A stretch of DNA of 64,000 nt from Escherichia coli (GCF_003334305.1 NZ_QOWS01000001.1), one strand, 5' to 3'; positions 516 to 45,499 are shown, counted from the stretch's first letter. Translations and numbers: made by a program. Notes: generated from the sequence alone by a model not told the origin.

Positions 516-959
516 ATGTTTAACAACATCTTAGTTGTCTGTGTCGGCAATATTTGCCGTTCCCCGACGGCGGAACGCTTACTGCAACGTTATCACCCGG
601 AACTGAAAGTGGAGTCCGCTGGACTCGGCGCGCTGGTCGGTAAGGGCGCAGATCCTACCGCTATCAGCGTCGCCGCAGAACATCAACTGTCTCTGGAAGG
701 CCACTGTGCACGACAAATCAGCCGTCGCCTGTGTCGCAACTATGACCTGATTTTGACCATGGAAAAGCGCCATATCCAACGCTTATGCGAGATGGCACCG
801 GAGATGCGCGGCAAAGTGATGCTGTTTGGTCACTGGGATAACGAATGTGAAATCCCCGATCCGTATCGCAAAAGCCGGGAAACGTTTGCAGCGGTGTACA
901 CATTACTTGAACGGTCTGCCCGCCAGTGGGCGCAGGCATTGAACGCAGAGCAGGTATAA
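516..959 (+). CDS. wzb: Low-molecular-weight protein-tyrosine phosphatase
   Basis: 147 aa; N-terminal CVGNICRSP (CX5R P-loop) motif; position between wza and wzc. Confidence 0.95.
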   Translation: MFNNILVVCVGNICRSPTAERLLQRYHPELKVESAGLGALVGKGADPTAISVAAEHQLSLEGHCARQISRRLCRNYDLILTMEKRHIQRLCEMAPEMRGKVMLFGHWDNECEIPDPYRKSRETFAAVYTLLERSARQWAQALNAEQV

Positions 960-961
960 GA

Positions 962-3124
962 ATGACAGAAAAAGTAAAACAACATGCCGCTCCGGTAACG
1001 GGCAGTGATGAAATCGATATTGGTCGCCTGGTCGGCACCGTCATTGAAGCGCGCTGGTGGGTGATTGGCATCACCGCCGTATTTGCCCTCTGTGCCGTGG
1101 TTTACACTTTCTTCGCCACGCCGATTTATAGTGCCGACGCACTGGTACAAATCGAGCAAAACAGCGGCAATTCGTTAGTGCAGGACATTGGTTCGGCATT
1201 AGCCAACAAACCGCCAGCATCGGACGCCGAGATCCAGTTGATTCGTTCGCGCCTGGTGCTTGGTAAAACGGTGGACGATCTCGACCTCGATATTGCAGTG
1301 AGCAAAAACACGTTCCCGATTTTCGGGGCGGGCTGGGATCGCCTGATGGGGCGTCAGAACGAGACGGTGAAAGTGACTACCTTTAACCGCCCGAAAGAGA
1401 TGGCGGATCAGGTGTTTACACTTAATGTGCTGGACGATAAAAACTACACTCTGAGCAGCGATGGCGGCTTTAGCGCCCGTGGGCAAGCGGGCCAGATGCT
1501 GACAAAAGAAGGCGTCACGCTGATGGTTGAAGCCATTCACGCCCGCCCGGGCAGTGAGTTTACCGTCACCAAATACTCCACGCTGGGGATGATCAATCAA
1601 CTGCAAAACAGCCTGACGGTAACGGAGAACGGCAAAGACGCAGGCGTACTGAGCCTGACTTATACCGGTGAAGATCGCGAACAGATCCGCGACATTCTTA
1701 ACAGCATCGCCCGTAACTATCAGGAACAAAATATTGAGCGCAAATCGGCGGAAGCGTCGAAAAGCCTCGCTTTCCTTGCGCAACAGTTACCGGAAGTACG
1801 TAGCCGCCTCGATGTTGCCGAAAACAAACTGAATGCCTTCCGTCAGGATAAAGATTCTGTTGATCTGCCGCTGGAAGCGAAAGCGGTGCTCGATTCGATG
1901 GTGAACATCGACGCGCAGTTGAACGAACTGACCTTTAAAGAGGCGGAAATCTCCAAGCTGTACACCAAAGTTCACCCGGCGTACCGCACGCTGCTGGAGA
2001 AACGTCAGGCGCTGGAAGACGAAAAAGCCAAACTTAATGGTCGCGTAACGGCGATGCCGAAAACCCAGCAGGAAATTGTCCGTCTGACCCGCGATGTCGA
2101 GTCTGGTCAGCAGGTCTATATGCAACTGCTGAATAAAGAGCAGGAACTGAAAATCACCGAAGCCAGCACCGTCGGCGATGTGCGCATTGTTGACCCGGCA
2201 ATCACCCAGCCTGGCGTGTTAAAACCGAAGAAAGGGCTGATTATCCTCGGCGCGATTATCCTCGGCCTGATGCTCTCTATCGTGGGTGTGCTGCTGCGCT
2301 CGTTGTTTAATCGCGGCATCGAAAGCCCGCAGGTGCTGGAAGAACACGGTATCAGCGTCTATGCCAGCATCCCGCTGTCGGAATGGCAGAAAGCGCGCGA
2401 TAGCGTCAAAACCATCAAAGGGGTTAAACGCTATAAACAGAGTCAGCTACTGGCGGTAGGGAATCCAACCGATCTGGCGATTGAAGCCATCCGTAGTCTG
2501 CGTACCAGTCTGCACTTCGCGATGATACAGGCGCAGAACAATGTGTTGATGATGACCGGGGTTAGCCCGTCAATCGGTAAAACCTTTGTCTGCGCCAACC
2601 TGGCGGCGGTGATCAGCCAGACCAATAAACGGGTGTTGTTGATCGACTGCGATATGCGCAAAGGTTATACCCACGAGCTGTTGGGCACCAATAACGTTAA
2701 TGGCCTGTCGGAAATTCTGATTGGTCAGGGCGATATTACTACCGCTGCTAAACCGACCTCTATTGCCAAATTTGACCTGATCCCGCGCGGTCAGGTACCG
2801 CCAAATCCTTCTGAACTGTTGATGAGCGAACGCTTTGCCGAACTGGTGAACTGGGCGAGTAAAAACTACGACCTGGTGTTGATTGATACGCCGCCGATTC
2901 TGGCAGTGACCGATGCCGCAATTGTTGGTCGTCATGTCGGAACCACGTTAATGGTGGCGCGTTATGCGGTCAACACCTTGAAAGAAGTGGAAACCAGTCT
3001 GAGCCGCTTTGAGCAAAACGGTATTCCGGTGAAAGGGGTGATTCTGAACTCCATCTTCCGCCGCGCCAGCGCGTATCAGGATTATGGCTATTACGAATAC
3101 GAATATAAGTCGGATGCGAAATAA
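962..3124 (+). CDS. wzc: Tyrosine autokinase / polysaccharide co-polymerase
   Basis: ATG at 962 (MTEKVKQ...) within ORF 926..3124; Walker A GVSPSIGKT; C-terminal tyrosine-rich tail YQDYGYYEYEY. Confidence 0.95.
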   Translation: MTEKVKQHAAPVTGSDEIDIGRLVGTVIEARWWVIGITAVFALCAVVYTFFATPIYSADALVQIEQNSGNSLVQDIGSALANKPPASDAEIQLIRSRLVLGKTVDDLDLDIAVSKNTFPIFGAGWDRLMGRQNETVKVTTFNRPKEMADQVFTLNVLDDKNYTLSSDGGFSARGQAGQMLTKEGVTLMVEAIHARPGSEFTVTKYSTLGMINQLQNSLTVTENGKDAGVLSLTYTGEDREQIRDILNSIARNYQEQNIERKSAEASKSLAFLAQQLPEVRSRLDVAENKLNAFRQDKDSVDLPLEAKAVLDSMVNIDAQLNELTFKEAEISKLYTKVHPAYRTLLEKRQALEDEKAKLNGRVTAMPKTQQEIVRLTRDVESGQQVYMQLLNKEQELKITEASTVGDVRIVDPAITQPGVLKPKKGLIILGAIILGLMLSIVGVLLRSLFNRGIESPQVLEEHGISVYASIPLSEWQKARDSVKTIKGVKRYKQSQLLAVGNPTDLAIEAIRSLRTSLHFAMIQAQNNVLMMTGVSPSIGKTFVCANLAAVISQTNKRVLLIDCDMRKGYTHELLGTNNVNGLSEILIGQGDITTAAKPTSIAKFDLIPRGQVPPNPSELLMSERFAELVNWASKNYDLVLIDTPPILAVTDAAIVGRHVGTTLMVARYAVNTLKEVETSLSRFEQNGIPVKGVILNSIFRRASAYQDYGYYEYEYKSDAK

Positions 3125-7810: not shown

Positions 7811-8359
7811 ATGCAAGATTTAAGCGGTTTCTCGGTGCCGAAAGGGTTCCGGGGCGGCAACGCTATTAAAGTGCAATTATGGTGGGCAGTACAGGCAACA
7901 ATATTTGCCTGGTCGCCACAAGTATTGTATCGCTGGCGGGCTTTTTTATTACGTTTATTCGGCGCAAAAATAGGAAAAAACGTAGTTATTCGTCCGTCAG
8001 TAAAAATTACCTATCCGTGGAAATTAACCTTAGGTGATTACGCGTGGGTCGGCGATGACGTCAATTTATATACCCTCGGTGAAATAACCATTGGCGCACA
8101 TTCGGTGATATCGCAAAAAAGTTATTTATGCACCGGTAGCCACGACCATGCAAGTCAACATTTCACCATTAACGCCACGCCTATTGTGATTGGCGAGAAA
8201 TGCTGGCTGGCAACCGATGTCTTTGTTGCCCCAGGCGTCACAATCGGCGACGGCACCGTCGTGGGTGCACGAAGCAGTGTTTTTAAATCGCTTCCGGCAA
8301 ATGTGGTTTGCCGGGGGAATCCCGCAGTGGTGATACGCGAACGCGTTGAAACTGAATAA
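7811..8359 (+). CDS. wcaF: Colanic acid O-acetyltransferase (hexapeptide repeat)
   Basis: 182 aa; hexapeptide repeats; synteny. Confidence 0.92.
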   Translation: MQDLSGFSVPKGFRGGNAIKVQLWWAVQATIFAWSPQVLYRWRAFLLRLFGAKIGKNVVIRPSVKITYPWKLTLGDYAWVGDDVNLYTLGEITIGAHSVISQKSYLCTGSHDHASQHFTINATPIVIGEKCWLATDVFVAPGVTIGDGTVVGARSSVFKSLPANVVCRGNPAVVIRERVETE

Positions 8360-8384
8360 ATTCAAAAATACAGAGGAATAAGAC

Positions 8385-9506
8385 ATGTCAAAAGTCGCTC
8401 TCATCACCGGTGTAACCGGACAAGACGGTTCTTACCTGGCAGAGTTTCTGCTGGAAAAAGGTTACGAGGTGCATGGTATTAAGCGTCGCGCATCGTCATT
8501 CAACACCGAGCGCGTGGATCACATTTATCAGGATCCGCACACCTGCAACCCGAAATTCCATCTGCATTATGGCGACCTGAGTGATACCTCCAACCTGACG
8601 CGCATTTTGCGTGAAGTACAGCCGGATGAAGTGTACAACCTGGGCGCAATGAGCCACGTTGCGGTTTCTTTTGAGTCACCGGAATATACCGCAGACGTCG
8701 ATGCGATGGGTACGCTGCGCCTGCTCGAGGCGATCCGCTTCCTCGGTCTGGAAAAGAAAACCCGTTTCTATCAGGCTTCCACCTCTGAACTGTACGGTCT
8801 GGTGCAGGAAATTCCGCAGAAAGAAACCACGCCGTTCTACCCGCGATCTCCGTATGCGGTCGCCAAACTGTACGCCTACTGGATCACCGTTAACTACCGC
8901 GAATCCTACGGCATGTACGCTTGTAACGGAATTCTCTTCAACCATGAATCCCCGCGCCGCGGCGAAACCTTCGTTACCCGCAAAATCACCCGCGCAATCG
9001 CCAACATCGCCCAGGGGCTGGAGTCGTGCCTGTACCTCGGCAATATGGATTCCCTGCGTGACTGGGGCCACGCCAAAGACTACGTAAAAATGCAGTGGAT
9101 GATGCTGCAACAGGAACAGCCGGAAGATTTCGTTATCGCGACCGGCGTTCAGTACTCCGTGCGTCAGTTCGTGGAAATGGCAGCGGCACAGCTGGGCATC
9201 AAACTGCGCTTTGAAGGCACGGGTGTTGAAGAGAAGGGCATTGTGGTTTCCGTCACCGGGCATGACGCGCCGGGCGTTAAACCGGGTGATGTGATTATCG
9301 CCGTTGATCCGCGTTACTTCCGTCCGGCTGAAGTTGAAACGCTGCTCGGCGACCCGACCAAAGCGCACGAAAAACTGGGCTGGAAACCGGAAATCACCCT
9401 CAGAGAGATGGTGTCTGAAATGGTGGCTAATGACCTCGAAGCGGCGAAAAAACACTCTCTGCTGAAATCTCACGGCTACGACGTGGCGATCGCGCTGGAG
9501 TCATAA
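8385..9506 (+). CDS. gmd: GDP-mannose 4,6-dehydratase
   Basis: 373 aa; N-terminal [10 protein letters not shown] Rossmann motif; protein recognised. Confidence 0.96.
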
Positions 9507-9508
9507 GC

Positions 9509-10474
9509 ATGAGTAGACAACGCATTTTTATCGCTGGCCATCGCGGAATGGTCGGTTCTGCCATCAGGCGGCAGCTCGAACAGCGCGGTGATGTGGAACT
9601 GGTATTACGCACCCGCGACGAGCTGAACCTGCTGGACAGCCGCGCGGTGCATGATTTCTTTGCCAGCGAACGCATTGACCAGGTCTATCTGGCGGCGGCG
9701 AAAGTGGGCGGCATTGTTGCCAACAACACCTATCCGGCGGATTTCATCTACCAGAACATGATGATTGAGAGCAACATCATTCACGCCGCGCATCAGAACG
9801 ACGTGAACAAACTGCTGTTTCTCGGATCGTCCTGCATCTACCCGAAACTGGCAAAACAGCCGATGGCAGAAAGCGAGCTGTTGCAGGGCACGCTGGAGCC
9901 GACTAACGAGCCTTATGCCATTGCCAAAATCGCCGGGATCAAACTGTGCGAATCTTACAACCGCCAGTATGGACGCGATTACCGCTCGGTCATGCCAACC
10001 AACCTGTACGGGCCACACGACAACTTCCATCCGAGTAACTCGCATGTGATCCCAGCATTGCTGCGTCGCTTCCACGAGGCGACGGCACAGAATGCACCGG
10101 ACGTGGTGGTGTGGGGCAGCGGTACACCGATGCGTGAATTTCTGCACGTCGATGATATGGCGGCGGCAAGCATTCATGTGATGGAGCTGGCGCACGAAGT
10201 CTGGCTGGAAAACACCCAGCCGATGTTGTCGCACATTAACGTCGGTACGGGCGTTGACTGCACTATCCGCGAGCTGGCGCAAACCATCGCCAAAGTGGTG
10301 GGTTACAAAGGTCGGGTGGTTTTTGATGCCAGTAAACCGGATGGTACGCCGCGCAAACTGCTGGATGTGACGCGCCTGCATCAGCTTGGCTGGTATCACG
10401 AAATCTCACTGGAAGCGGGGCTTGCCAGCACTTACCAGTGGTTCCTTGAGAATCAAGACCGCTTTCGGGGGTAA
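9509..10474 (+). CDS. fcl: GDP-L-fucose synthase
   Basis: 321 aa; SDR-type GHRGMVG motif; follows gmd. Confidence 0.96.
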
Positions 10475-20794: not shown

Positions 20795-22189
20795 ATGCCA
20801 TTTAAAAAACTCTCCCGACGCACCTTCCTGACGGCAAGCTCCGCGCTTGCCTTCCTCCATACCCCTTTCGCTCGCGCACTTCCCGCCCGACAAAGCGTTA
20901 ACATTAACGACTACAACCCACACGACTGGATCGCCTCATTTAAACAAGCCTTCGGTGAAGGGCAAACGGTCGTCGTGCCTGCCGGATTGGTTTGCGACAA
21001 TATCAACACCGGCATCTTCATTCCTCCTGGCAAAACGTTACACATCCTTGGAAGCCTGCGCGGCAACGGCAGAGGGCGATTTGTCTTACAGGACGGTAGC
21101 CAGGTGACAGGGGAGGAGGGCGGCAGTATGCATAACATCACCCTGGATGTGCGTGGCTCTGACTGCACCATCAAAGGGCTGGCGATGAGCGGCTTTGGCC
21201 CGGTAACGCAGATTTATATCGGCGGCAAAAACAAACGGGTCATGCGCAACCTGACCATCGATAACCTCACTGTCAGCCACGCTAATTACGCCATCTTACG
21301 CCAGGGATTTCATAACCAGATAATCGGTGCCAACATCACCAATTGTAAGTTCAGCGACTTACAGGGCGATGCCATTGAATGGAACGTGGCGATTAACGAC
21401 CGTGATATTTTGATCTCCGACCATGTCATCGAGCGCATCAACTGTACTAACGGAAAAATCAATTGGGGCATTGGCATAGGCCTTGCGGGGAGTACTTATG
21501 ATAATAATTACCCGGAAGATCAGGCAGTGAAAAACTTTGTCGTGGCGAATATCACGGGATCGGATTGTCGGCAGTTGATCCATGTTGAAAATGGTAAACA
21601 TTTTGTTATTCGTAATATCAAAGCCCGCAATATCACGCCGGATTTCAGTAAGAAAGCAGGTATTGATAACGCCACAGTCGCTATTTACGGTTGTGACAAT
21701 TTCGTGATTGATAATATTGAAATGATTAATAGCGCCGGGATGTTAATCGGCTATGGGGTAATTAAAGGCAAATATCTCTCGATACCGCAAAATTTCCGAG
21801 TGAATAATATTCAACTGGATAATACCCACCTTGCTTACAAATTGCGCGGTATCCAAATCTCCGCCGGGAATGCTGTCTCCTTTGTGGCGCTGACTAACAT
21901 TGAGATGAAGCGTGCGTCGCTTGAGCTACACAATAAACCGCAACACCTTTTTATGCGAAATATCAAGGTGATGCAGGAATCCTCTGTTGGACCAGCATTG
22001 AGCATGAACTTCGACATGCGCAAAGACGTTCGCGGCGTTTTTATGGCAAAGCGTGAAACGCTGCTTTCACTCACGAATATTCATGCCGTGAATGAAAAAG
22101 GGCAAAGCTCCGTCGATATCGACAGGATTAATCACCATATTGTTAATGTGGAAAAGATTAACTTTAGATTGCCGGAACGGAGGGAGTAG
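20795..22189 (+). CDS. wcaM: Colanic acid biosynthesis protein WcaM (secreted, beta-helix-like)
   Basis: 464 aa; signal-peptide-like N-terminus; last gene of the colanic acid operon by synteny. Confidence 0.9.
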
Positions 22190-22346
22190 ATTTGCGACCA
22201 TTCATAAACTTACTGGATATAATGTTCTAAAAGATTATAATCCTTACGCTAACTGTTAAAGCTGGGGCTGGGCAGCATTGACTACTCAGGGAAGGTACTC
22301 ATCTTTATCTTGTGTTTCTTACGTAACAACCAGACTAAAGTGATTT

Positions 22347-23342
22347 ATGAACGATAACGTTTTGCTCATAGGAGCTTCCGGATTCGTAGGAACCCGACTA
22401 CTTGAAACGGCAATTGCTGACTTTAATATCAAGAACCTGGACAAACAGCAGAGCCATTTTTATCCAGAAATTACACAGATTGGCGATGTTCGCGATCAAC
22501 AGGCACTCGACCAGGCGTTAGCTGGTTTTGACACTGTTGTACTGCTGGCAGCGGAACATCGCGATGATGTCAGCCCTACTTCTCTCTATTATGATGTCAA
22601 TGTTCAGGGTACCCGCAACGTGCTGGCAGCCATGGAAAAAAATGGCGTTAAAAATATCATCTTTACCAGTTCCGTTGCTGTTTATGGTTTGAACAAACAC
22701 AATCCTGACGAAAACCATCCACACGATCCTTTCAACCACTACGGCAAAAGTAAGTGGCAGGCAGAGGAAGTGCTGCGTGAATGGTATAACAAAGCACCAA
22801 CAGAACGTTCATTAACTATCATCCGTCCTACCGTTATCTTCGGTGAACGCAACCGCGGTAACGTCTATAACTTGCTGAAACAGATCGCTGGCGGCAAGTT
22901 TATGATGGTGGGTGCAGGAACTAACTATAAGTCCATGGCTTATGTTGGAAACATTGTTGAGTTTATCAAGTACAAACTGAAGAATGTTGCCGCAGGTTAT
23001 GAGGTTTATAACTACGTTGATAAGCCAGATCTGAACATGAACCAGTTGGTTGCGGAAGTTGAACAAAGCCTGAACAAAAAGATCCCTTCTATGCACTTGC
23101 CTTACCCACTAGGAATGCTGGGTGGATATTGCTTTGATATCCTGAGCAAAATTACGGGCAAAAAATACGCAGTCAGCTCTGTGCGCGTGAAAAAATTCTG
23201 CGCAACAACACAGTTTGACGCAACGAAAGTGCATTCTTCAGGTTTTGTGGCACCGTATACGCTGTCGCAAGGTCTGGATCGAACTCTGCAGTATGAATTC
23301 GTCCATGCCAAAAAAGACGACATAACGTTTGTTTCTGAGTAA
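22347..23342 (+). CDS. gne: UDP-N-acetylglucosamine/UDP-hexose 4-epimerase (NAD-dependent SDR)
   Basis: 331 aa; GASGFVG Rossmann motif and YxxxK; position between wcaM and galF as in strains carrying gne. Confidence 0.8.
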   Translation: MNDNVLLIGASGFVGTRLLETAIADFNIKNLDKQQSHFYPEITQIGDVRDQQALDQALAGFDTVVLLAAEHRDDVSPTSLYYDVNVQGTRNVLAAMEKNGVKNIIFTSSVAVYGLNKHNPDENHPHDPFNHYGKSKWQAEEVLREWYNKAPTERSLTIIRPTVIFGERNRGNVYNLLKQIAGGKFMMVGAGTNYKSMAYVGNIVEFIKYKLKNVAAGYEVYNYVDKPDLNMNQLVAEVEQSLNKKIPSMHLPYPLGMLGGYCFDILSKITGKKYAVSSVRVKKFCATTQFDATKVHSSGFVAPYTLSQGLDRTLQYEFVHAKKDDITFVSE

Positions 23343-23584
23343 TGCAGGCGAGTCAGAGAAAAAAGGACCAGGTTGGACTACGATTATTCGGAAAGAGGTA
23401 CTGATTAAATTATCAGTATGCGGAATTCCGAGTAATCCGAGTAACCCAGATGCTGATGGTGTGTAGTGTTATCGTAAGGTTTAATCAAAGTTATGCGGAA
23501 CTAAGCTTTGGTATATAGCCATAACGTTTGGCTAACCAATGGCAATAATTTACGCACTATCAGCCACTTAGAGGTAGGAAAAGA

Positions 23585-24478
23585 ATGACGAATTTAAAAG
23601 CAGTTATACCGGTAGCAGGTCTTGGGATGCATATGTTGCCTGCCACTAAGGCGATTCCCAAAGAGATGCTACCGATCGTCGACAAGCCAATGATTCAGTA
23701 CATTGTTGACGAGATTGTGGCTGCAGGGATCAAAGAAATCCTCCTGGTAACTCACGCGTCCAAGAACGCGGTCGAAAACCACTTCGACACCTCTTATGAA
23801 TTAGAATCTCTCCTTGAACAGCGCGTGAAGCGTCAACTGCTGGCGGAAGTGCAGTCGATCTGTCCACCGGGAGTGACCATTATGAACGTGCGTCAGGGCG
23901 AACCTTTAGGTTTGGGCCACTCCATTTTGTGTGCGCGACCTGCCATTGGTGACAACCCATTTGTCGTGGTACTGCCAGACGTAGTGATCGACGACGCCAG
24001 CGCCGACCCGCTGCGCTACAACCTAGCTGCCATGATTGCGCGCTTCAATGAAACGGGACGCAGCCAGGTGCTGGCAAAACGTATGCCGGGTGATCTCTCT
24101 GAATACTCCGTCATTCAGACCAAAGAACCGCTGGATCGCGAAGGTAAAGTCAGCCGCATTGTTGAATTCATCGAAAAACCGGATCAGCCACAAACGCTGG
24201 ACTCAGACATCATGGCCGTTGGTCGCTATGTGCTTTCTGCCGATATTTGGCCGGAACTTGAACGCACTCAACCTGGTGCATGGGGGCGTATTCAACTGAC
24301 TGATGCCATTGCTGAACTGGCGAAAAAACAGTCCGTTGATGCAATGCTGATGACTGGTGAAAGCTACGACTGCGGTAAAAAAATGGGCTATATGCAGGCG
24401 TTTGTGAAGTATGGCTTACGCAACCTGAAAGAAGGGGCGAAGTTCCGTAAAGGGATTGAGAAGCTGTTAAGCGAATAA
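23585..24478 (+). CDS. galF: UTP-glucose-1-phosphate uridylyltransferase paralog
   Basis: 297 aa; protein recognised; conventional upstream boundary of the O-antigen locus. Confidence 0.95.
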
Positions 24479-35143: not shown

Positions 35144-35428
35144 ATGAGTCGTTTATCCCACCAGTCGCAACATAACGCCGTCGTCGTGTGCAAAGAGCTG
35201 TCAAGCCCGAACGCGCGCTGCTTCTCTGGCGGCGAATACGATGTCTCTTCTTATCTTTCCTCGTATCGTAAATGCTCCTTTCTGATGGTTGCTGGCATCG
35301 GTAAATCACTTGATTCGTTTTTTTTGATGGCGGTGAGAGCATGTGTTTTGCCCCGCGTAAATGAGAAGGTCCTGATGGTTACTCTGGCGGCAAATGTGGA
35401 AATTGTGGGGCGTTTCGTGGCCTGGTGA
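35144..35428 (+). CDS. Hypothetical small protein (orphan ORF in the wzz-manC junction)
   Basis: 94-aa ORF from ATG 35144 (GAGG just upstream), in frame with a longer ORF from 35120; followed by a strong hairpin terminator; no recognisable domain. Confidence 0.3.
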   Translation: MSRLSHQSQHNAVVVCKELSSPNARCFSGGEYDVSSYLSSYRKCSFLMVAGIGKSLDSFFLMAVRACVLPRVNEKVLMVTLAANVEIVGRFVAW

Positions 35429-35444
35429 GGAACAGATACATATT

Positions 35445-35490
35445 AAAAGCAGAGATATGCCCTGAGACATATCTCTGCTTTTAGGTTTTC
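35445..35490 (+). terminator. Strong stem-loop / putative intrinsic terminator
   Basis: 11-bp near-perfect inverted repeat GCAGAGATATG...CATATCTCTGC followed by TTTTAGGTTTT. Confidence 0.65.
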
Positions 35491-35582
35491 AGGATGCCCG
35501 TTCCGTAAGGATGGTTTTTGAGACCGCTGAGTGAAGGGGCTGCCGACAGTCTGAAGCGAAAGAGGGTGGCGTTTAGCCTGGA

Positions 35583-35624
35583 GCACTACGCATTTTGGTT
35601 GCGATAGCCAATGGCGGTAGCGTA
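35583..35624 (+). promoter_or_regulatory. Degenerate JUMPstart-like element with ops-like site
   Basis: GGCGGTAGCGT at 35613-35623 with partial JUMPstart similarity upstream, about 80 bp before manC. Confidence 0.6.
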
Positions 35625-35701
35625 CCTGAAAAAGGCCATTCAACCCGTTGGTCGATTGATTGATAGTAAAATAAAACAATTATTTATTTAAGGATTTCAT
35701 T

Positions 35702-37117
35702 ATGTTACTTCCTGTAATTATGGCTGGTGGTACCGGCAGTCGTCTCTGGCCGATGTCACGCGAGCTTTATCCGAAACAGTTCCTCCGCCTGTTCGGGCAG
35801 AACTCCATGCTGCAGGAAACCATCACCCGACTCTCGGGTCTTGAAATCCATGAACCGATGGTCATCTGTAACGAAGAGCATCGCTTCCTGGTGGCTGAAC
35901 AGCTGCGCCAGCTAAATAAGCTGTCGAATAACATTATACTTGAGCCAGTCGGGCGCAACACCGCGCCGGCCATCGCCCTGGCGGCCCTTCAGGCCACCCG
36001 CTACGGTGACGACCCGCTGATGCTGGTTCTCGCCGCCGACCACATCATCAATAACCAGTCGGCCTTCCACGACGCTATCCGGGTCGCCGAGCAGTATGCT
36101 GATGAAGGTCATCTGGTCACCTTCGGTATCGTGCCGAATGCCCCGGAAACTGGCTACGGTTACATTCAGCGCGGCGTGGCGCTCACCGATAGTGCCCATT
36201 CCGCGTACCAGGTGGCCCGCTTTGTGGAGAAGCCGGATCGCGAGCGCGCCGAGGCTTACCTCGCCTCCGGGGAGTACTACTGGAACAGCGGCATGTTTAT
36301 GTTCCGCGCCAAGAAATACCTCATCGAGCTGGCCAAATACCGTCCGGATATCCTGGAAGCCTGCCAGGCTGCGGTGAATGCCGCCGATAATGGCAGCGAT
36401 TTCATCAATATCCCACATGATATTTTCTGCGAGTGCCCGGATGAGTCCGTGGACTACGCCGTTATGGAGAAAACCGCTGATGCGGTGGTGGTCGGTCTCG
36501 ATGCTGACTGGAGCGACGTTGGCTCCTGGTCCGCACTATGGGAGGTCAGCCCGAAAGACGAGCAGGGCAACGTCCTTAGTGGCGACGCGTGGGTACACAA
36601 CAGCGAAAACTGCTACATCAACAGCGACGAGAAGCTAGTGGCGGCCATTGGCGTAGAGAATCTGGTGATTGTCAGCACTAAGGACGCCGTGCTGGTGATG
36701 AATCGCGAGCGTTCCCAGGACGTGAAGAAGGCGGTCGAGTTCCTCAAGCAGAACCAGCGCAGCGAGTACAAGCGCCACCGTGAGATTTACCGCCCCTGGG
36801 GCCGTTGCGACGTAGTGGTCCAGACCCCGCGCTTCAACGTCAACCGCATCACGGTGAAACCAGGCGGTGCCTTCTCGATGCAGATGCACCACCATCGCGC
36901 CGAGCATTGGGTTATTCTCGCCGGCACCGGTCAGGTGACGGTCAACGGTAAGCAGTTCCTGCTGTCCGAGAACCAGTCCACCTTTATTCCGATTGGCGCC
37001 GAGCACTGCCTGGAAAACCCTGGCTGTATTCCGCTGGAAGTGCTGGAGATCCAGTCGGGGGCGTACCTTGGCGAGGACGACATTATTCGTATTAAAGACC
37101 AGTATGGTCGTTGCTAA
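35702..37117 (+). CDS. manC: Mannose-1-phosphate guanylyltransferase (O-antigen copy)
   Basis: 471 aa; paralogous to cpsB but clearly divergent at DNA level and more GC-rich; [11 protein letters not shown] motif. Confidence 0.93.
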
Positions 37118-37140
37118 TTATTTTCGGGACAAGATGCAGA

Positions 37141-38517
37141 ATGACACAGTTAACTTGTTTTAAGGCTTATGACATCCGTGGTGAACTGGGTGAGGAACTG
37201 AACGAGGACATCGCCTACCGTATCGGTCGCGCCTACGGCGAATTTCTGAAACCCGGGAAGATAGTGGTGGGGGGCGATGTGCGCCTCACAAGCGAGTCGC
37301 TGAAGCTGGCGCTGGCCCGCGGGTTAATGGACGCCGGTACCGACGTGCTGGACATCGGCCTGAGCGGTACCGAAGAGATTTACTTTGCCACCTTCCACCT
37401 TGGGGTAGATGGTGGCATCGAGGTGACCGCGAGCCACAATCCTATGAACTACAACGGCATGAAGCTGGTGCGCGAGAATGCGAAGCCCATCAGCGGCGAC
37501 ACCGGCCTGCGGGATATCCAGCGCCTGGCGGAGGAAAACCAGTTCCCGCCAGTGGACCCGGCGCGTCGCGGGACCCTGAGCAAGATATCGGTACTGAAGG
37601 AGTATGTTGACCATCTGATGAGCTACGTGGACTTCTCGAACTTCACCCGTCCACTGAAGTTGGTGGTGAACTCCGGAAACGGGGCTGCGGGGCACGTGAT
37701 TGATGAGGTGGAGAAACGCTTCGCGGCGGCTGGGGTGCCGGTAACCTTTATCAAGGTGCATCACCAGCCGGATGGCCATTTCCCTAACGGTATCCCGAAT
37801 CCGCTGCTGCCGGAGTGCCGCCAGGATACCGCCGACGCGGTGCGCGAGCATCAGGCAGACATGGGGATTGCCTTTGACGGCGACTTCGATCGCTGCTTCC
37901 TGTTCGATGACGAAGCTTCGTTTATCGAGGGGTATTACATTGTCGGCCTGCTGGCTGAGGCGTTCCTGCAGAAGCAGCCGGGAGCGAAAATCATTCACGA
38001 CCCGCGCTTGACGTGGAACACGGTAGACATCGTGACCCGCAACGGCGGCCAGCCGGTGATGTCGAAGACGGGGCATGCGTTCATCAAGGAGCGGATGCGT
38101 CAGGAAGACGCTATCTACGGCGGGGAGATGAGTGCGCACCATTACTTCCGCGATTTCGCCTACTGCGATAGCGGGATGATCCCGTGGCTGCTGGTGGCGG
38201 AGCTGCTGTGTCTGAAGAACAGCTCGCTGAAATCGCTGGTGGCGGACCGCCAGAGGGCGTTCCCTGCGTCGGGAGAGATCAACCGCAAGCTAAGGAATGC
38301 GGCTGAGGCGATCGCCCGCATCCGGGCGCAGTATGAGCCGGCGGCTGCACACATCGACACAACGGACGGGATCAGTATTGAATACCCTGAATGGCGCTTT
38401 AACCTGCGCACGTCTAACACCGAGCCGGTGGTGCGTCTGAACGTTGAGTCCAGAGCTGATGTGGCGCTTATGAATGAAAAAACGACCGAGCTGTTACACC
38501 TGTTAAGCGGGGAATAA
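37141..38517 (+). CDS. manB: Phosphomannomutase (O-antigen copy)
   Basis: ATG at 37141 ([14 protein letters not shown]) inside ORF 37111..38517, 458 aa; paralogous to cpsG. Confidence 0.93.
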
Positions 38518-38518
38518 G

Positions 38519-39313
38519 GTGAGAGATTTACTAACGACGATTTATCGTTATCGGGGATTTATCTGGAGCAGTGTTAAACGTGATTTTCAGGCGCGCTATC
38601 AAACTAGTATGCTGGGCGCACTATGGCTCGTTTTACAACCGCTCTCTATGATTCTGGTCTATACCCTGGTTTTTTCCGAGGTGATGAAGGCAAGAATGCC
38701 CGATAATACCGGGTCGTTTGCCTATAGTATTTATCTCTGTTCCGGGGTACTGACCTGGGGATTATTTACTGAGATGCTGGATAAAGGTCAGAGCGTATTT
38801 ATTAACAATGCTAATCTGATCAAGAAACTCAGTTTTCCGAAAATCTGTCTGCCGATCATCGTGACGTTATCGGCGGTGCTAAATTTCGCGATTATTTTCA
38901 GTCTGTTTCTAATTTTTATCATTGTCACCGGTAACTTCCCCGGCTGGCTCTTTCTCTCGGTGATACCGGTCCTGCTTTTGCAAATCCTGTTTGCCGGTGG
39001 GCTGGGGATGATCCTTGGTGTCATGAACGTCTTTTTCAGGGATGTGGGGCAACTGGTTGGCGTTGCGCTGCAATTCTGGTTTTGGTTCACACCCATTGTT
39101 TATGTACTGAATTCATTACCTGCATGGGCAAAAAATCTGATGATGTATAACCCGATGACTCGGATCATGCAATCTTATCAGTCCATCTTCGCCTATCATC
39201 TGGCCCCCAACTGGTATTCGCTATGGCCAGTATTGGCTCTCGCCATTATTTTCTGTGTCATCGGTTTCAGGATGTTCCGCAAGCATGCGGCGGATATGGT
39301 GGATGAATTATAA
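38519..39313 (+). CDS. wzm: ABC-2 type O-antigen exporter permease
   Basis: 264 aa, 6 TM segments; GTG start at 38519 with GGGGAATAAGG upstream; directly precedes wzt. Confidence 0.85.
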   Translation: MRDLLTTIYRYRGFIWSSVKRDFQARYQTSMLGALWLVLQPLSMILVYTLVFSEVMKARMPDNTGSFAYSIYLCSGVLTWGLFTEMLDKGQSVFINNANLIKKLSFPKICLPIIVTLSAVLNFAIIFSLFLIFIIVTGNFPGWLFLSVIPVLLLQILFAGGLGMILGVMNVFFRDVGQLVGVALQFWFWFTPIVYVLNSLPAWAKNLMMYNPMTRIMQSYQSIFAYHLAPNWYSLWPVLALAIIFCVIGFRMFRKHAADMVDEL

Positions 39314-40527
39314 TGAGTTATATCAGAGTAAATAATGTCGGTAAGGCGTATCGCCAGTATCACTCAAAGACCGGGAGACTGATCGAATGGTTATCCCCTC
39401 TGAATACCAAACGCCATAACTTGAAATGGATCCTCCGCGAGATTAATTTCGAAGTCGCTCCGGGCGAGGCTGTCGGTATTATCGGTATCAACGGTGCAGG
39501 CAAGAGTACCCTGCTTAAACTCATAACCGGGACGTCCAGGCCGACGACTGGAGAAATTGAAATCTCCGGACGTGTCGCTGCATTACTCGAATTGGGGATG
39601 GGGTTTCATTCTGATTTCACTGGCCGGCAGAATGTTTATATGTCTGGGCAACTGTTGGGGTTATCGTCAGAGAAAATAACTGAACTGATGCCGCAAATTG
39701 AAGAGTTTGCTGAGATTGGGGACTATATCGATCAGCCTGTGCGCGTCTACTCCAGTGGGATGCAAGTTCGATTAGCTTTTAGTGTAGCGACGGCTATCCG
39801 TCCTGATGTGCTAATTATCGATGAGGCATTATCTGTTGGGGATGCATATTTCCAGCATAAAAGCTTTGAGCGTATTCGAAAATTTCGTCAGGAAGGGACC
39901 ACGCTGTTGCTGGTATCCCATGATAAACAAGCGATCCAAAGCATTTGCGACCGGGCCATTTTATTGAATAAAGGCCAAATTGAAATGGAAGGTGAACCTG
40001 AAGCAGTGATGGATTATTACAATGCGCTTCTGGCCGATAAACAAAATCAGTCCATTAAACAAGTTGAGCATAATGGTAAAACGCAAACTGTTTCAGGCAC
40101 TGGTGAGGTGACTATCTCTGAGGTTCATCTTCTCGATGAACAGGGCAATGTGACTGAATTTGTTTCGGTAGGGCATCGTGTCAGCTTGCAGGTCAACGTT
40201 GAGGTCAAGGACGATATTCCTGAGCTTGTTGTCGGATATATGATTAAGGATCGACTTGGACAGCCGATTTTCGGGACCAATACGTACCATCTCAATCAGA
40301 CACTCACCTCCCTGAAAAAAGGAGAAAAGCGTTCGTTCTTATTTTCTTTCGATGCGAGATTGGGGGTTGGCTCCTATTCTGTCGCTGTCGCGTTGCATAC
40401 TTCCAGTACGCACCTCGGCAAAAACTATGAATGGCGCGATCTGGCCGTGGTATTCAACGTCGTTAACACGGAACAACAAGAGTTTGTCGGCGTGTCCTGG
40501 TTGCCGCCTGAACTGGAGATTTCTTAA
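39313..40527 (+). CDS. wzt: O-antigen ABC exporter ATP-binding protein with C-terminal extension
   Basis: 404 aa; Walker A GINGAGKST, signature YSSGMQVRLAF, Walker B LIIDEA; about 150 aa beyond the nucleotide-binding domain. Confidence 0.88.
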   Translation: MSYIRVNNVGKAYRQYHSKTGRLIEWLSPLNTKRHNLKWILREINFEVAPGEAVGIIGINGAGKSTLLKLITGTSRPTTGEIEISGRVAALLELGMGFHSDFTGRQNVYMSGQLLGLSSEKITELMPQIEEFAEIGDYIDQPVRVYSSGMQVRLAFSVATAIRPDVLIIDEALSVGDAYFQHKSFERIRKFRQEGTTLLLVSHDKQAIQSICDRAILLNKGQIEMEGEPEAVMDYYNALLADKQNQSIKQVEHNGKTQTVSGTGEVTISEVHLLDEQGNVTEFVSVGHRVSLQVNVEVKDDIPELVVGYMIKDRLGQPIFGTNTYHLNQTLTSLKKGEKRSFLFSFDARLGVGSYSVAVALHTSSTHLGKNYEWRDLAVVFNVVNTEQQEFVGVSWLPPELEIS

Positions 40528-41804
40528 TGGGTTCGTCGTTTTATCGTTCATTTGAAGAACGACACAGAGGTTCGGTTGAAGAAATCAAGCGCCGCTTGAG
40601 TTTTTATTTACCTTTTCTTGCAGGTCTGAAGGACATTTATCCTGATGGCGTGATTGCGGATATTGGTTGCGGACGTGGCGAATGGTTGGAGATCCTGACT
40701 GAAAATGGCATTGCGAACATCGGCGTCGATCTCGATGATGGCATGCTGGCGCGCGCCAGGGAGGCCGGACTGAATGTGCAGAAAATGGATTGTCTGCAGT
40801 TTCTGCAAAGTCAGGCGGATCAGAGCCTGATAGCGTTGACCGGTTTTCATATTGCTGAGCATTTGCCTTTTGAGGTCCTGCAGCAGCTCGTCATGCATAC
40901 CCTACGGGTGCTGAAACCAGGTGGTTTGCTGATCCTCGAAACGCCGAACCCGGAGAATGTAAACGTCGGCACCTGTTCATTTTATATGGATCCAACGCAT
41001 AATCATCCTCTGCCACCGCCACTGCTTGAGTTTTTACCTATTCATTATGGTTTTAACAGAGCAATTACCGTTCGTCTGCAGGAAAAAGAGGTTCTTCAAT
41101 CTCCGGATGCAGCCGTTAATTTGGTCGATGTACTCAAAGGGGTGAGCCCCGACTACAGCATCATTGCTCAGAAAGCAGCGCCAACAGATATTCTTGAACG
41201 CTTTGACACCCTGTTTACCCAGCAGTATGGTCTGACGCTGGATGCTCTGAGCAACCGTTACGATGCGATTTTGCGCCAACAGTTTTCGTCCGTTGTCTCA
41301 CGGCTGGAGACGTTGAACCAAACCTATATGCAACAGATAAGCCAAATGTCAGAGACTATTCAGACTTTGCAAGGTGAGGTTGACGATCTGAGTCATGTCA
41401 TCGATCAGAACCATCAGCTTCATCAGCAAATGGCGGATTTACATAACAGTCGTTCATGGCGTATTACTCAACCACTACGCTGGTTGTCTTTGCAACGTCA
41501 ATTATTACGTCAGGAAGGGGCTAAAGTGCGAGCCCGTAGGGCTGCGAAAAAAATATTGCGCAAAGGGATGGCGCTCTCGCTGGTCTTTTTCCATCGTTAC
41601 CCTAAGTCTAAGGTTTATCTGTTTAAGGTTCTGAGAAAAACTGGCTGCTATACATTGCTACAACGTTTGTTCCAACGCGTAATGCTGGTGCAATCTGACA
41701 CGATGATGATGCAGTCCAGAAGATATGATGTGGGTACTGAAGAAATGACAAGTCGCGCGATGAGTATTTATAACGAATTAAAAAATAAAAATACGGAGAA
41801 ATAA
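40527..41804 (+). CDS. wbdD: Chain-terminating SAM-dependent methyltransferase (methyltransferase-only WbdD type)
   Basis: 425 aa; methyltransferase motif DIGCGRGEWL; C-terminal coiled-coil-like region; no kinase motifs seen. Confidence 0.7.
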   Translation: MGSSFYRSFEERHRGSVEEIKRRLSFYLPFLAGLKDIYPDGVIADIGCGRGEWLEILTENGIANIGVDLDDGMLARAREAGLNVQKMDCLQFLQSQADQSLIALTGFHIAEHLPFEVLQQLVMHTLRVLKPGGLLILETPNPENVNVGTCSFYMDPTHNHPLPPPLLEFLPIHYGFNRAITVRLQEKEVLQSPDAAVNLVDVLKGVSPDYSIIAQKAAPTDILERFDTLFTQQYGLTLDALSNRYDAILRQQFSSVVSRLETLNQTYMQQISQMSETIQTLQGEVDDLSHVIDQNHQLHQQMADLHNSRSWRITQPLRWLSLQRQLLRQEGAKVRARRAAKKILRKGMALSLVFFHRYPKSKVYLFKVLRKTGCYTLLQRLFQRVMLVQSDTMMMQSRRYDVGTEEMTSRAMSIYNELKNKNTEK

Positions 41805-41806
41805 CG

Positions 41807-44800
41807 ATGCGTATTGTCATAGATTTACAAGGCGCACAGACGGAAAGCCGCTTTCGTGGCATCGGTCGTTATAGTATCGCAATCGCCAGAGGCATAATCA
41901 GAAATAACAGCCGGCATGAGATTTTCATCGCGCTATCCGCCATGCTGGATGAGTCGATTGCGGATATTAAGGCGCAATTTGCCGATCTCCTGCCGGCAGA
42001 AAATATAGTCGTATGGCATGCCGTAGGCCCTGTTCGTGCGATGGACCAAGGTAATGAATGGCGTCGGGAGAGCGCAGAACTGATTCGGGAAGCGTTTCTT
42101 GAATCATTGTGTCCAGATGTCGTTTTCATTACGAGCTTGTTTGAAGGTCATGTCGACGATGCGGCTACATCGGTACACAAATTTAGTCGTCAGTATAAAG
42201 TAGCCGTACTGCACCACGATCTTATCCCCCTCGTGCAGGCGGAAACCTATCTGCAGGACGATGTATACAAACCCTACTACTTACAGAAAGTTGAGTGGTT
42301 AAAAAACGCTGACCTTTTGTTGACTAACTCTGCTTATACCGCACAGGAAGCGATCGAGCATCTGCATTTACAGGGCGATCATGTGCAGAATATTGCAGCC
42401 GCAGTCGATTCTCAGTTTTGTATGGCGGAGGTGACAGCGAGCGAAAAAGAGACCGTCCTTGGCCATTACGGTATTCAGCGCGAGTTCATGTTGTATGCGC
42501 CCGGAGGATTTGACTCAAGGAAAAACTTTAAACGGTTGATTGAGGCCTATGCCGGGCTCAGTGATGCCTTACGTCGCAGTCATCAACTGGTTATCGTCAG
42601 TAAGCTTTCCATCGGTGATCGTCAGTATCTGGAATCCCTTGCGTCAGGTAATGGTTTACAGCAAGGCGAACTGGTACTCACTGGTTATGTGCCGGAAGAT
42701 GAGCTGATCCAGCTCTATCGCCTATGTAAGCTGTTCATCTTTGCTTCACTACATGAAGGTTTTGGGTTGCCGGTTCTGGAAGCAATGTCGTGCGGTGCGC
42801 CGGTGATTGGCTCAAATGTCACCAGTATTCCTGAAGTCATCGGTAATCCTGAGGCATTATTCGACCCGTATTCTGTCTCTTCCATGAGGGATAAGATCGC
42901 GCAATGTTTGACTGATGATACCTTCCTCGCGCGTCTGAAAGAAATGGCGCAGCAGCAAGCGCGTAATTTCTCTTGGGATAAAGCTGCGGTGACTGCTCTG
43001 GAGGCTTTCGAAAAGATCGCGGTAGAAGACACCGGTACTGCGCAGGTTTTGCCTGAAGCTTTGATTCAGAAGATCCTTGCTATCACACAAGGGCAGCCAG
43101 ATGACCGCGATCTGCGCTTGTGCGCAACGGCCATTGATTACAATCTGAAAACGGCAGAACTTTATCAAATCGACGATAAATCGCTGAACTGGCGTGTGGA
43201 AGGCCCATTCGATAGCTCATATAGTCTGGCGTTGGTCAACCGCGAATTTGCCCGGGCACTCTCAGCCGATGGTGTAGAGGTCTTATTGCATTCCACTGAA
43301 GGACCGGGTGATTTTGCCCCAGATGCCTCCTTTATGGCACAGTCGGAAAATAGTGATCTTCTGGCATTTTATAATCAATGTCAGACCCGCAAGAGTAACG
43401 AAAAGATAGATATTCTTAGCAGAAATATCTATCCACCGCGGGTTACCAAAATGGATGCCAAAGTAAAATTCCTTCATTGTTATGCTTGGGAAGAAACGGG
43501 CTTTCCGCAACCGTGGATCAATGAATTTAATCGGGAACTTGACGGAGTGCTGTGTACTTCGGAACATGTTCGTAAAATATTGATTGATAACGGACTGAAT
43601 GTGCCCGCATTTGTTGTTGGCAATGGCTGTGACCATTGGCTCAATATCCCAGCCGAGACGACAAAAGATGTGGATCACGGAACATTCCGTTTCCTGCACG
43701 TCTCTTCTTGTTTCCCACGCAAAGGGATACAGGCAATGCTTCAGGCTTGGGGGAAGGCGTTCACTCGTCGTGACAATGTTATCTTAATCATTAAGACTTT
43801 TAACAATCCGCACAATGAAATTGACGCATGGCTGGCTCAGGCCCAGGCTCAATTCATAGACTATCCCAAAGTTGAAGTGATCAAAGAGGATATATCAGCC
43901 ACCGAGCTTAAAGGGCTTTATGAAAGCTGTGATGTTTTGGTTGCTCCAGGTTGCGCTGAAGGCTTTGGTTTACCTATTGCTGAAGCAATGCTGAGTGGGC
44001 TACCGGCTATCGTCACCAATTGGAGCGGGCAACTTGATTTTGTTAATTCACAAAATTCATGGCTGGTTGACTATCAGTTCACTCGGGTAAAAACGCACTT
44101 TGGTCTGTTTTCCTCAGCCTGGGCCAGTGTGGATATTGACAACTTAACAGATGCATTAAAAGCGGCAGCCTCAACCGATAAATCAGTGCTGCGTGACATG
44201 GCCAATGCTGGTCGCGAGCTTCTTCTGCAGCAGTTTACCTGGAAAGCGGTGGCTGATCGTTCTTGCCAGGCGGTCAAGACTCTGCGTGCGCATATTGATA
44301 TTGCACAGCATCGGGCGCGCATTGGCTGGTTGACGACCTGGAACACGAAATGTGGGATCGCAACCTATTCCCAGCATCTGGTGGAAAGCGCACCTCATGG
44401 CGCGGATGTTGTTTTTGCTCCCCAGGTCAGCGCTGGCGATCTTGTGTGTGCAGACGAAGAGTTTGTACTTCGCAACTGGATTGTAGGTAAAGAGAGCAAC
44501 TATCTGGAAAACCTCCAGCCACACATTGATGCTCTGAAACTCGATGTCATTGTGATCCAATTCAACTATGGATTCTTTAATCATCGAGAACTGTCGGTGT
44601 TTATTCGTCGCCAGCATGACGCCGGTCGTTCAGTTGTTATGACGATGCACTCAACTGTGGATCCGCTGGAAAAAGAGCCGAGCTGGAATTTCCGTCTTGC
44701 TGAAATGAAAGAGGCGCTGGCACTTTGCGACCGGTTGTTGGTGCATTCGATTGCCGATATGAACCGCCTTAAAGATTTAGGCTTAACTGCGAATGTTGCT

Positions 44801-45448
44801 TTATTCCCGCACGGTGTTATCAACTACTCCGCAGCGAGCGTCACACGTCAACAGCAGTCTTTACCGCTAATTGCGAGCTATGGCTTCTGCTTACCGCATA
44901 AGGGCCTGATGGAACTAGTAGAATCCGTCCATAGACTCAAGCAAGCCGGTAAACCGGTTCGTTTACGACTGGTGAACGCAGAGTATCCTGTTGGGGAGTC
45001 ACGCGATCTGGTGGCAGAGCTTAAAGCTGCTGCTCAGCGGTTAGGTGTTACCGATCTGATTGAGATGCATAATGATTTCCTACCTGATGCGGAGAGTCTG
45101 CGGTTGCTTTCAGAAGCCGATCTTCTGATTTTTGCTTATCAGAATACTGGGGAGTCTGCTAGCGGGGCGGTACGTTATGGTATGGCGACTCAAAAACCTG
45201 TTGCGGTAACGCCCCTGGCGATATTTGATGATTTGGACGATGCCGTCTTTAAATTTGATGGATGCAGCGTCGATGATATCAGTCAGGGGATTGACCGGAT
45301 CCTGAATTCCATCCGTGAACAGAACTCTTGGGCAACCAGGACTCAACAACGTGCCGATGCATGGCGGGAACAACATGATTATCAAGCTGTTTCACGCCGT
45401 CTGGTTAATATGTGTCAAGGCTTAGCTAAAGCTAAATATTTTAAATAA
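41807..45448 (+). CDS. wbdA: Multidomain polymerising mannosyltransferase (GT4 modules)
   Basis: 1213 aa; GT4 signatures EGFGLPVLEAMSCGAPV (about residue 320) and EGFGLPIAEAMLSGLPAI (about residue 725), plus a third C-terminal GT-like region. Confidence 0.75.
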   Translation: MRIVIDLQGAQTESRFRGIGRYSIAIARGIIRNNSRHEIFIALSAMLDESIADIKAQFADLLPAENIVVWHAVGPVRAMDQGNEWRRESAELIREAFLESLCPDVVFITSLFEGHVDDAATSVHKFSRQYKVAVLHHDLIPLVQAETYLQDDVYKPYYLQKVEWLKNADLLLTNSAYTAQEAIEHLHLQGDHVQNIAAAVDSQFCMAEVTASEKETVLGHYGIQREFMLYAPGGFDSRKNFKRLIEAYAGLSDALRRSHQLVIVSKLSIGDRQYLESLASGNGLQQGELVLTGYVPEDELIQLYRLCKLFIFASLHEGFGLPVLEAMSCGAPVIGSNVTSIPEVIGNPEALFDPYSVSSMRDKIAQCLTDDTFLARLKEMAQQQARNFSWDKAAVTALEAFEKIAVEDTGTAQVLPEALIQKILAITQGQPDDRDLRLCATAIDYNLKTAELYQIDDKSLNWRVEGPFDSSYSLALVNREFARALSADGVEVLLHSTEGPGDFAPDASFMAQSENSDLLAFYNQCQTRKSNEKIDILSRNIYPPRVTKMDAKVKFLHCYAWEETGFPQPWINEFNRELDGVLCTSEHVRKILIDNGLNVPAFVVGNGCDHWLNIPAETTKDVDHGTFRFLHVSSCFPRKGIQAMLQAWGKAFTRRDNVILIIKTFNNPHNEIDAWLAQAQAQFIDYPKVEVIKEDISATELKGLYESCDVLVAPGCAEGFGLPIAEAMLSGLPAIVTNWSGQLDFVNSQNSWLVDYQFTRVKTHFGLFSSAWASVDIDNLTDALKAAASTDKSVLRDMANAGRELLLQQFTWKAVADRSCQAVKTLRAHIDIAQHRARIGWLTTWNTKCGIATYSQHLVESAPHGADVVFAPQVSAGDLVCADEEFVLRNWIVGKESNYLENLQPHIDALKLDVIVIQFNYGFFNHRELSVFIRRQHDAGRSVVMTMHSTVDPLEKEPSWNFRLAEMKEALALCDRLLVHSIADMNRLKDLGLTANVALFPHGVINYSAASVTRQQQSLPLIASYGFCLPHKGLMELVESVHRLKQAGKPVRLRLVNAEYPVGESRDLVAELKAAAQRLGVTDLIEMHNDFLPDAESLRLLSEADLLIFAYQNTGESASGAVRYGMATQKPVAVTPLAIFDDLDDAVFKFDGCSVDDISQGIDRILNSIREQNSWATRTQQRADAWREQHDYQAVSRRLVNMCQGLAKAKYFK

Positions 45449-45499
45449 AAATATCTCTCTTGTATTTTTTGCCTTTGAATACAAGAGGGGTTAGATAAT

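Follow-up and report, generated by a model that had tools for sequence, protein, structure and literature searches.

A gnu-type 4-epimerase gene between wcaM and galF in an Escherichia coli genome with O46/O134-type and O8 clusters

The wcaM-galF interval and the neighboring polysaccharide clusters

The window, which is the whole 64,000-nucleotide stretch of Escherichia coli DNA analysed here, contains the end of the colanic acid cluster, galF and two clusters of O-antigen type (Table 1). Between wcaM and galF lies the gene that is called gnu below. As the first-pass annotation had described it, this is an epimerase of the SDR family with 331 residues, located between the colanic acid operon and galF: the open reading frame is found at exactly these coordinates, and its product matches the Pfam family PF01370 (Epimerase, NAD-dependent epimerase/dehydratase) with an E-value of 1.2e-30. 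The boundaries of wcaM, gnu and galF are the same in the RefSeq annotation of near-identical genomes. In an alignment of 112 full-length homologs, with identities down to 33%, Ser108 and Tyr132 are invariant, Lys136 is 99% conserved, and Gly9, Gly12, Gly15 and Asp32 are at least 90% conserved. The protein has the features of an extended SDR, namely the GxxGxxG motif, the Ser...YxxxK triad and a two-domain fold of ~330 residues. The frame is a real gene, and a chance open reading frame is excluded.

Table 1. Features of the window around gnu and in the two adjacent polysaccharide clusters
Feature	Coordinates	Strand	Basis or remark
wcaM, last gene of the colanic acid cluster, left flank of gnu	20795..22189	+	ORF and RefSeq
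wcaM-gnu intergenic region	22190..22346	+	157 bp, 37% GC; homology to K-12 ends at ~22203
Promoter-like site, TGGATA-16-TATAAT	22214..22241	+	10/12; consensus match only
gnu CDS	22347..23342	+	ORF call; ATG start, 331 aa; called gne in the first-pass annotation
Product of gnu, N-acetyl-alpha-D-glucosaminyl-diphospho-undecaprenol 4-epimerase	22347..23342	+	RefSeq WP_000999466.1
gnu codons G9-G15 (GASGFVG), Rossmann GxxGxxG NAD-binding motif	22371..22391	+	Motif match and conservation
gnu codon S108, catalytic Ser of the SDR triad	22668..22670	+	Invariant in the homolog alignment; aligns with GalE S124
gnu codons Y132-K136 (YGKSK), catalytic YxxxK	22740..22754	+	Align with GalE Y149/K153
gnu-galF intergenic region	23343..23584	+	242 bp, belongs to the allele with gnu; not homologous to the K-12 spacer apart from the last few bases before galF
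galF, right flank of gnu	23585..24478	+	ORF and RefSeq
ops element GGCGGTAG (JUMPStart), downstream of galF and preceding the O-unit genes	24764..24771	+	
O46/O134-type Wzx/Wzy cluster, between galF and gnd	24786..30498	+	ORFs and RefSeq annotation; 28-32% GC
ATP-grasp amidoligase, first O-unit gene	24786..25631		
wzy	27838..28977	+	Intact, 379 aa
O8 ABC-transporter polymannan cluster, between wzzB and hisIE	35702..47782		Apparently intact
wbdC, Und-PP-GlcNAc 3-alpha-mannosyltransferase	46667..47782	+	RefSeq product name and ORF

The presence of gnu varies between strains. When gnu and its spacers were used as megablast queries against 5426 complete E. coli genomes, 1315 (~24%) proved to carry the gene, in accord with the earlier remark that many lineages have no gene at this site. 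The same annotation had called the gene 'retained', a term that the comparison with K-12 does not bear out. Homology between the window and K-12 stops 14 nt past the stop codon of wcaM and resumes a few bases before the start of galF, and the 174-bp K-12 spacer is unrelated to the 1.37-kb gnu segment. By alignment, the two are alternative, unrelated inserts, so that the ancestral state cannot be read from the window and K-12. In E. coli G6/7 (NZ_CP060061.1, site at 847..2483), an IS1A element lies between a 3'-truncated wcaM pseudogene and galF, and the gnu segment is gone except for its last ~235 bp before galF. This arrangement was rejected as the normal gnu-less allele because it is an IS1-mediated deletion that also truncates wcaM, and K-12 was used instead.

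The gnu gene is positioned upstream of the ops element at 24764 and is thus outside the O-unit operon; it would be transcribed from a promoter of its own. A promoter-like site is present in the upstream spacer, in a scan for promoters and terminators that returned no more sites than the shuffled expectation. No terminator-like site was found on the + strand of the gnu-galF spacer. The GC content of gnu is 44.5%, compared to 48-53% in the housekeeping flanks and 28-32% in the O-unit cassette.

The cluster downstream of galF is of the O46/O134 type and comprises, in order, genes for an ATP-grasp amidoligase, Wzx, a GT2 glycosyltransferase, Wzy, a beta-1,6-GlcNAc-transferase-like glycosyltransferase and a second GT2 enzyme. 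Its DNA matches that of STEC005, TUM1887 and DETEC-E601 at 100%. Neither an initiating transferase nor gne is present in the annotated cluster. According to the title of Perepelov 2015, both the O46 and the O134 antigen contain D-glucuronoyl-D-allothreonine, a component that fits the ATP-grasp gene and the downstream ugd. The ATP-grasp amidoligase is thus a plausible candidate for joining D-allothreonine to GlcA.

The wzy gene of H15 (25648..26772) is frameshifted according to RefSeq, whereas the gene encodes 379 residues in the window and in STEC005. The alignment of H15 with the window, 41 kb in length, shows 7 mismatches and 10 gap openings. Because wzy is intact in the window and ten such small indels separate the two sequences, the H15 frameshift is probably assembly indel noise. 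A dead O46/O134-type cluster with a frameshifted wzy was considered for the window and rejected, as its wzy has the same 379 residues as that of STEC005.

The second cluster carries manC, manB, wzm, wzt and genes for a methyltransferase, a 1213-residue glycosyltransferase and a GT4 glycosyltransferase, followed by wbdC, and is preceded by an ops element of its own at 35613. The O8 and O46/O134-type clusters occur together in at least 8 of the 17 complete genomes with the latter cluster. In others of the 17, such as FDAARGOS_1372, wzzB directly adjoins hisIE. The spacer between wzzB and manC (34562..35701) contains a small hypothetical ORF, 285 nt long in H15 and STEC005, and in STEC005 there is an additional partial pseudogene fragment. 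This spacer looks like a junction that arose when the O8 cluster was inserted.

Sequence and structural relationships of Gnu

The window protein does not belong with the GalE/Gne UDP-sugar 4-epimerases. It scores 71.4 bits against the GalE equivalog model TIGR01179 (cutoff 262.3 bits), over residues 5-170 only, and 56 bits against the UDP-glucose 4-epimerase subfamily model NF007956 (cutoff 394 bits), whereas K-12 GalE, used as a control, scores 499.8 and 764.4 bits, respectively. BLASTP aligns Gnu to K-12 GalE with 30% identity and 17% gaps, but no further than GalE residue 282. The GalE matches in the PDB span only residues ~45-167 of Gnu. In E. coli GalE, Tyr299 is the gatekeeper that sets the specificity for Glc versus GlcNAc. 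This residue is beyond the end of the Gnu alignment, and no alignable C-terminal UDP-sugar pocket is found. Judged by these comparisons, Gnu is not a member of the GalE/Gne group.

The top NCBIfam matches are HpnA, LegB and OleD, all of them far below the curated cutoffs; the HpnA model TIGR03466, for instance, gives 95.5 bits against a cutoff of 367.65. The Pfam family PF01073 (3Beta_HSD) matches with an E-value of 4.9e-27. A search of the PDB found no solved structure of a close relative, the best sequence match being at 2e-17; one of the neighbors is NSDHL (6jkg, 2.3e-17). An AlphaFold model calculated from the family alignment has a confident extended-SDR fold (pLDDT 96.6, pTM 0.93). The structures that Foldseek matches to this model are extended-SDR epimerases, dehydratases and decarboxylases of nucleotide sugars, with identities of 17-22% and TM scores of 0.73-0.76, values that indicate only the generic extended-SDR fold. 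Neither a transmembrane segment nor a strongly amphipathic helix, either of which might give access to a lipid substrate, was found in the protein. The top Kyte-Doolittle window is the first beta strand of the Rossmann fold, and no hydrophobic moment stands out.

Among 1.8 billion representative proteins searched, 365 relatives of Gnu were found at E<=1e-30. Some of them are fusions, each known as a single metagenomic representative with 39-48% identity to Gnu. P0248 consists of a polyprenyl-phosphate glycosylphosphotransferase domain of the PglC/WbaP type (TIGR03025, 190 bits) and a C-terminal Gnu-like domain. It is a called gene (7834..9777 on a 9.8-kb contig) beside PglD-, DegT- and PglF-like genes, a neighborhood reminiscent of a bacillosamine-type pathway. 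In P0140, P0147, P0188 and P0189, the Gnu-like domain is fused to GT4 glycosyltransferases. As supporting evidence, these fusions fit an action on lipid-linked intermediates. The residues His71, Asp73, Arg160, Arg280 and Lys283 are conserved and specific to the family, and possibly form a putative binding site for the diphosphate lipid.

Shortened variants of E. coli Gnu are present in databases, such as P0013-P0017, P0026, P0029 and P0056 (296-305 residues) and P0121 (245 residues). In the last, residues 1-185 are those of Gnu and the remainder differs, a pattern suggestive of a frameshifted allele. In view of these variants, some lineages may carry an inactivated gnu.

The closest characterized protein is that of O157:H7, to which the window protein is 100% identical in amino acid sequence. 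The two alleles differ at the DNA level by 21 synonymous changes, all in third codon positions, and by no non-synonymous change, which points to strong purifying selection on the gnu reading frame. The RefSeq protein WP_000999466.1 is common to H15, STEC005 and an O157:H7 genome, where it is encoded at the same wcaM-galF site. Its RefSeq name in all genomes inspected is 'N-acetyl-alpha-D-glucosaminyl-diphospho-ditrans,octacis-undecaprenol 4-epimerase'.

Assignment of the gene and its role

The enzyme of O157 was originally named gne and was assumed to make UDP-GalNAc for WecA (Cunneen 2013, PMC3682973). Its biochemistry, due to Rush 2010, is taken here from two secondary summaries (PMC3682973 and PMC7685785). 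As related by Cunneen 2013 (PMC3682973), Rush 2010 found the enzyme inactive on UDP-GlcNAc and able to turn Und-PP-GlcNAc made by WecA into Und-PP-GalNAc. The identical protein of O86, 'Gne1', has been assigned the same role, and is needed there besides a true Gne, 'Gne2' (PMC3682973). The clade of 4-epimerases to which these proteins belong, clade D, was consequently renamed gnu (Cunneen 2013, PMC3682973), and a 2019 review of E. coli O antigens makes the same assignment, with gnu located just upstream of galF (PMC7685785). Furthermore, a transposon insertion in gnu of O157:H7 resembles one in wecA in its effect toward phages that depend on the O antigen (preprint 10.64898/2026.07.23.740414). 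By virtue of the identity of the proteins, activity on Und-PP-GlcNAc and inactivity on UDP-GlcNAc are carried over to the window protein.

The neighboring cluster supplies a likely consumer of the product. According to Table S2 of Cunneen 2013 (PMC3682973), where the composition of the O46 repeat unit is a summary-table entry, the unit has one GalNAc in its main chain and no GlcNAc, and is listed as 'need gnu'; gnu was present by PCR, and no gne is given. With one GalNAc in the main chain and neither GlcNAc nor gne, gnu is expected. In agreement with this, gnu is contiguous with the O46/O134-type cluster in all 17 complete genomes bearing its wzx/wzy genes, which represent at least three sequence groups. 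The O46/O134-type cluster would thus be the consumer of Und-PP-GalNAc.

Taken together, the gene of the window is very probably gnu (EC 5.1.3.26), encoding an Und-PP-GlcNAc 4-epimerase that serves the adjacent O46/O134-type cluster. Such a gene is already known, and is an ordinary and expected neighbor of a cluster of this type. In the proposed pathway, Und-PP-GlcNAc would be formed on the cytoplasmic side of the inner membrane by WecA, which is encoded elsewhere. Gnu would be a soluble or peripheral NAD-dependent 4-epimerase of the extended-SDR type that reverses the configuration at C4 of the lipid-linked sugar by way of a short-lived 4-keto intermediate, as GalE does, yielding Und-PP-GalNAc. 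Tyr132 is predicted to act as the base, assisted by Lys136 and Ser108, with NAD bound at the Rossmann motif of residues 9-15. With Und-PP-GalNAc as the acceptor, the three glycosyltransferases of the O46/O134-type cluster would then assemble the repeat unit, and the finished unit would be flipped by Wzx and polymerized by Wzy.

The assignment has to be weighed against three other readings. The gene could encode a true Gne, in which case a 4-epimerase of UDP-GlcNAc (or UDP-Glc) would provide WecA or a glycosyltransferase with UDP-GalNAc. This was the original assignment for the locus, and the titles of Wang 2002 and Guo 2007 claim a UDP-GlcNAc or UDP-hexose 4-epimerase; several orthologs still have database entries named UDP-glucose or UDP-GlcNAc 4-epimerase, and the nearest solved folds are UDP-sugar 4-epimerases. 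However, the fold matches amount to 17-22% identity at TM scores of ~0.75, the GalE equivalog and subfamily models are failed by a wide margin with only the N-terminal half aligning, and the identical O157 protein is reported to lack UDP-GlcNAc activity (PMC3682973). O86 requires both gne1, whose product is identical to the window protein, and gne2 (PMC3682973), so that the functions of the two must differ. A true Gne is therefore very unlikely. It is more improbable still that the protein is an SDR enzyme of another kind, for example a 4-keto reductase, a dehydratase or an enzyme that oxidizes a lipid in the manner of a 3-beta-hydroxysteroid dehydrogenase. The 3Beta_HSD match is nearly equal to the Epimerase match (4.9e-27 and 1.2e-30), HpnA, LegB and OleD are the best NCBIfam matches, and clade C includes a 4-keto reductase (Cunneen 2013, PMC3682973). 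Nevertheless, the scores for HpnA, LegB and OleD are far under the curated cutoffs, the protein is identical to one characterized as an epimerase, and the distribution of gnu tracks GalNAc as the first sugar.

A different objection concerns not the activity but its use. A functional gnu might be present merely through its linkage to galF and remain unused, for example if the O8 antigen is expressed and the O46/O134-type cluster is silent. In 10 cases recorded by Cunneen 2013 (PMC3682973), gnu or gne occurs although it was not predicted to be there, and the same study notes that the galF-linked locus segregates independently. In the window, gnu is outside the ops-controlled operon and has a GC content unlike that of the O-unit cassette, the O8 cluster is complete, and wzy of H15 is annotated as frameshifted. 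These points are offset by the intact wzy of 379 residues in the window and in the three genomes that are identical over the cluster, by the presence of gnu in 17 out of 17 genomes with the O46/O134-type cluster, by the need of O46 for GalNAc as its first sugar and by the purifying selection on the reading frame. An unused gnu is thus unlikely, and the preferred reading is that of an epimerase acting on Und-PP-GlcNAc on behalf of the adjacent cluster.

The observation reported in the first-pass annotation is confirmed, and its interpretation is partly supported. The name gne has to be replaced by gnu, following the nomenclature of Cunneen 2013 (PMC3682973) and RefSeq. The suggested need for a 4-epimerised sugar stands insofar as an N-acetylhexosamine, GalNAc, primes the O unit, but the expected product is not the proposed UDP-GalNAc, as the O157 enzyme is reported to make Und-PP-GalNAc. 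Substrate specificity was said to be beyond what sequence can tell. It can be inferred in this case, because the protein is 100% identical to a characterized enzyme and, as the failure of the GalE and Gne models indicates, far outside the GalE/Gne group. The comparison of specificity-determining residues with GalE and Gne that had been proposed is not applicable, since the alignment stops at GalE residue 282, before Tyr299.

The practical value of the identification is correct annotation, gnu and not gne, and the two labels have different consequences. The label gne predicts a pool of UDP-GalNAc and the addition of GalNAc by a glycosyltransferase, whereas with gnu, GalNAc is expected to be made on the lipid carrier and to stand first in the repeat unit, at its reducing end. 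A GalNAc in first position fixes the biological repeat unit, the order of the glycosyltransferases and the linkage formed by Wzy (Cunneen 2013, PMC3682973). The reducing-end GalNAc generated through Gnu is also a property exploited in glycoengineering.

A shared precursor and comparison with known systems

The arrangement of the two clusters in the window is like that in O8 and O9 strains with group 4 K antigens, for example O8:K40. O8 strains bear wzx/wzy genes at the galF-gnd locus that direct a capsule (DebRoy 2016). By analogy with the group 4 K antigens, the product of the O46/O134-type cluster is probably a K antigen or a second O antigen. The annotated substrate of WbdC, Und-PP-GlcNAc, is that of Gnu as well, so that the two pathways may compete at this point: in the O8 branch WbdC would mannosylate Und-PP-GlcNAc directly, and the O46/O134-type branch would need Und-PP-GalNAc. 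A speculative extension, for which the odds are rather against, is that Gnu acts as a metabolic switch at the WecA-made Und-PP-GlcNAc and splits the scarce carrier lipid between the two polymers. If this were so, a gnu promoter separate from the two ops-controlled operons would be of regulatory importance.

The system closest to that of the window is Gnu of O157:H7 (Z3206, clade D). The protein, its accession and product name and the wcaM-galF locus are the same, and in both cases GalNAc is the first sugar of an O unit whose cluster has no gene for an initiating transferase. The differences are the 21 synonymous changes, the type of the cluster, which is O46/O134 and not O157, and the additional O8 cluster of the window strain. 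The location of clade D genes in Enterobacteriaceae, immediately upstream of galF and outside the O-unit operon, is also that of the window gene.

GalE and Gne, represented by K-12 GalE, Gne of Y. enterocolitica O8 and Gne2 of E. coli O86, share with Gnu the extended-SDR fold, the NAD motif, the Ser-Tyr-Lys triad and the chemistry of C4 epimerisation. However, the reported substrate of Gnu is lipid-linked and not a nucleotide sugar, and gne genes lie within the O-antigen operon, unlike gnu of the window. The UDP-GlcNAcA 4-epimerases of clade B (GnaB, WbpP and WbgU) are likewise SDR 4-epimerases of an N-acetylhexosamine derivative. They too have historically been mislabelled as Gne, and are always accompanied by a gene for the dehydrogenase WbpO/GnaA (PMC3682973). 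In contrast, gnu adjoins wcaM and galF and no gene for such a UDP-GlcNAc 6-dehydrogenase; the only dehydrogenase gene near it is ugd, for a UDP-Glc 6-dehydrogenase, ~9 kb downstream. WbpP and WbgU are absent from the best 60 PDB sequence matches of Gnu. The best-scoring NCBIfam and PDB neighbors are HpnA and SDR enzymes of the 3-beta-HSD/NSDHL type, which also have membrane-associated substrates. Their chemistry and substrates are different, however, and Gnu scores far below the cutoffs of these families. The resemblance may reflect only the shared Rossmann core.
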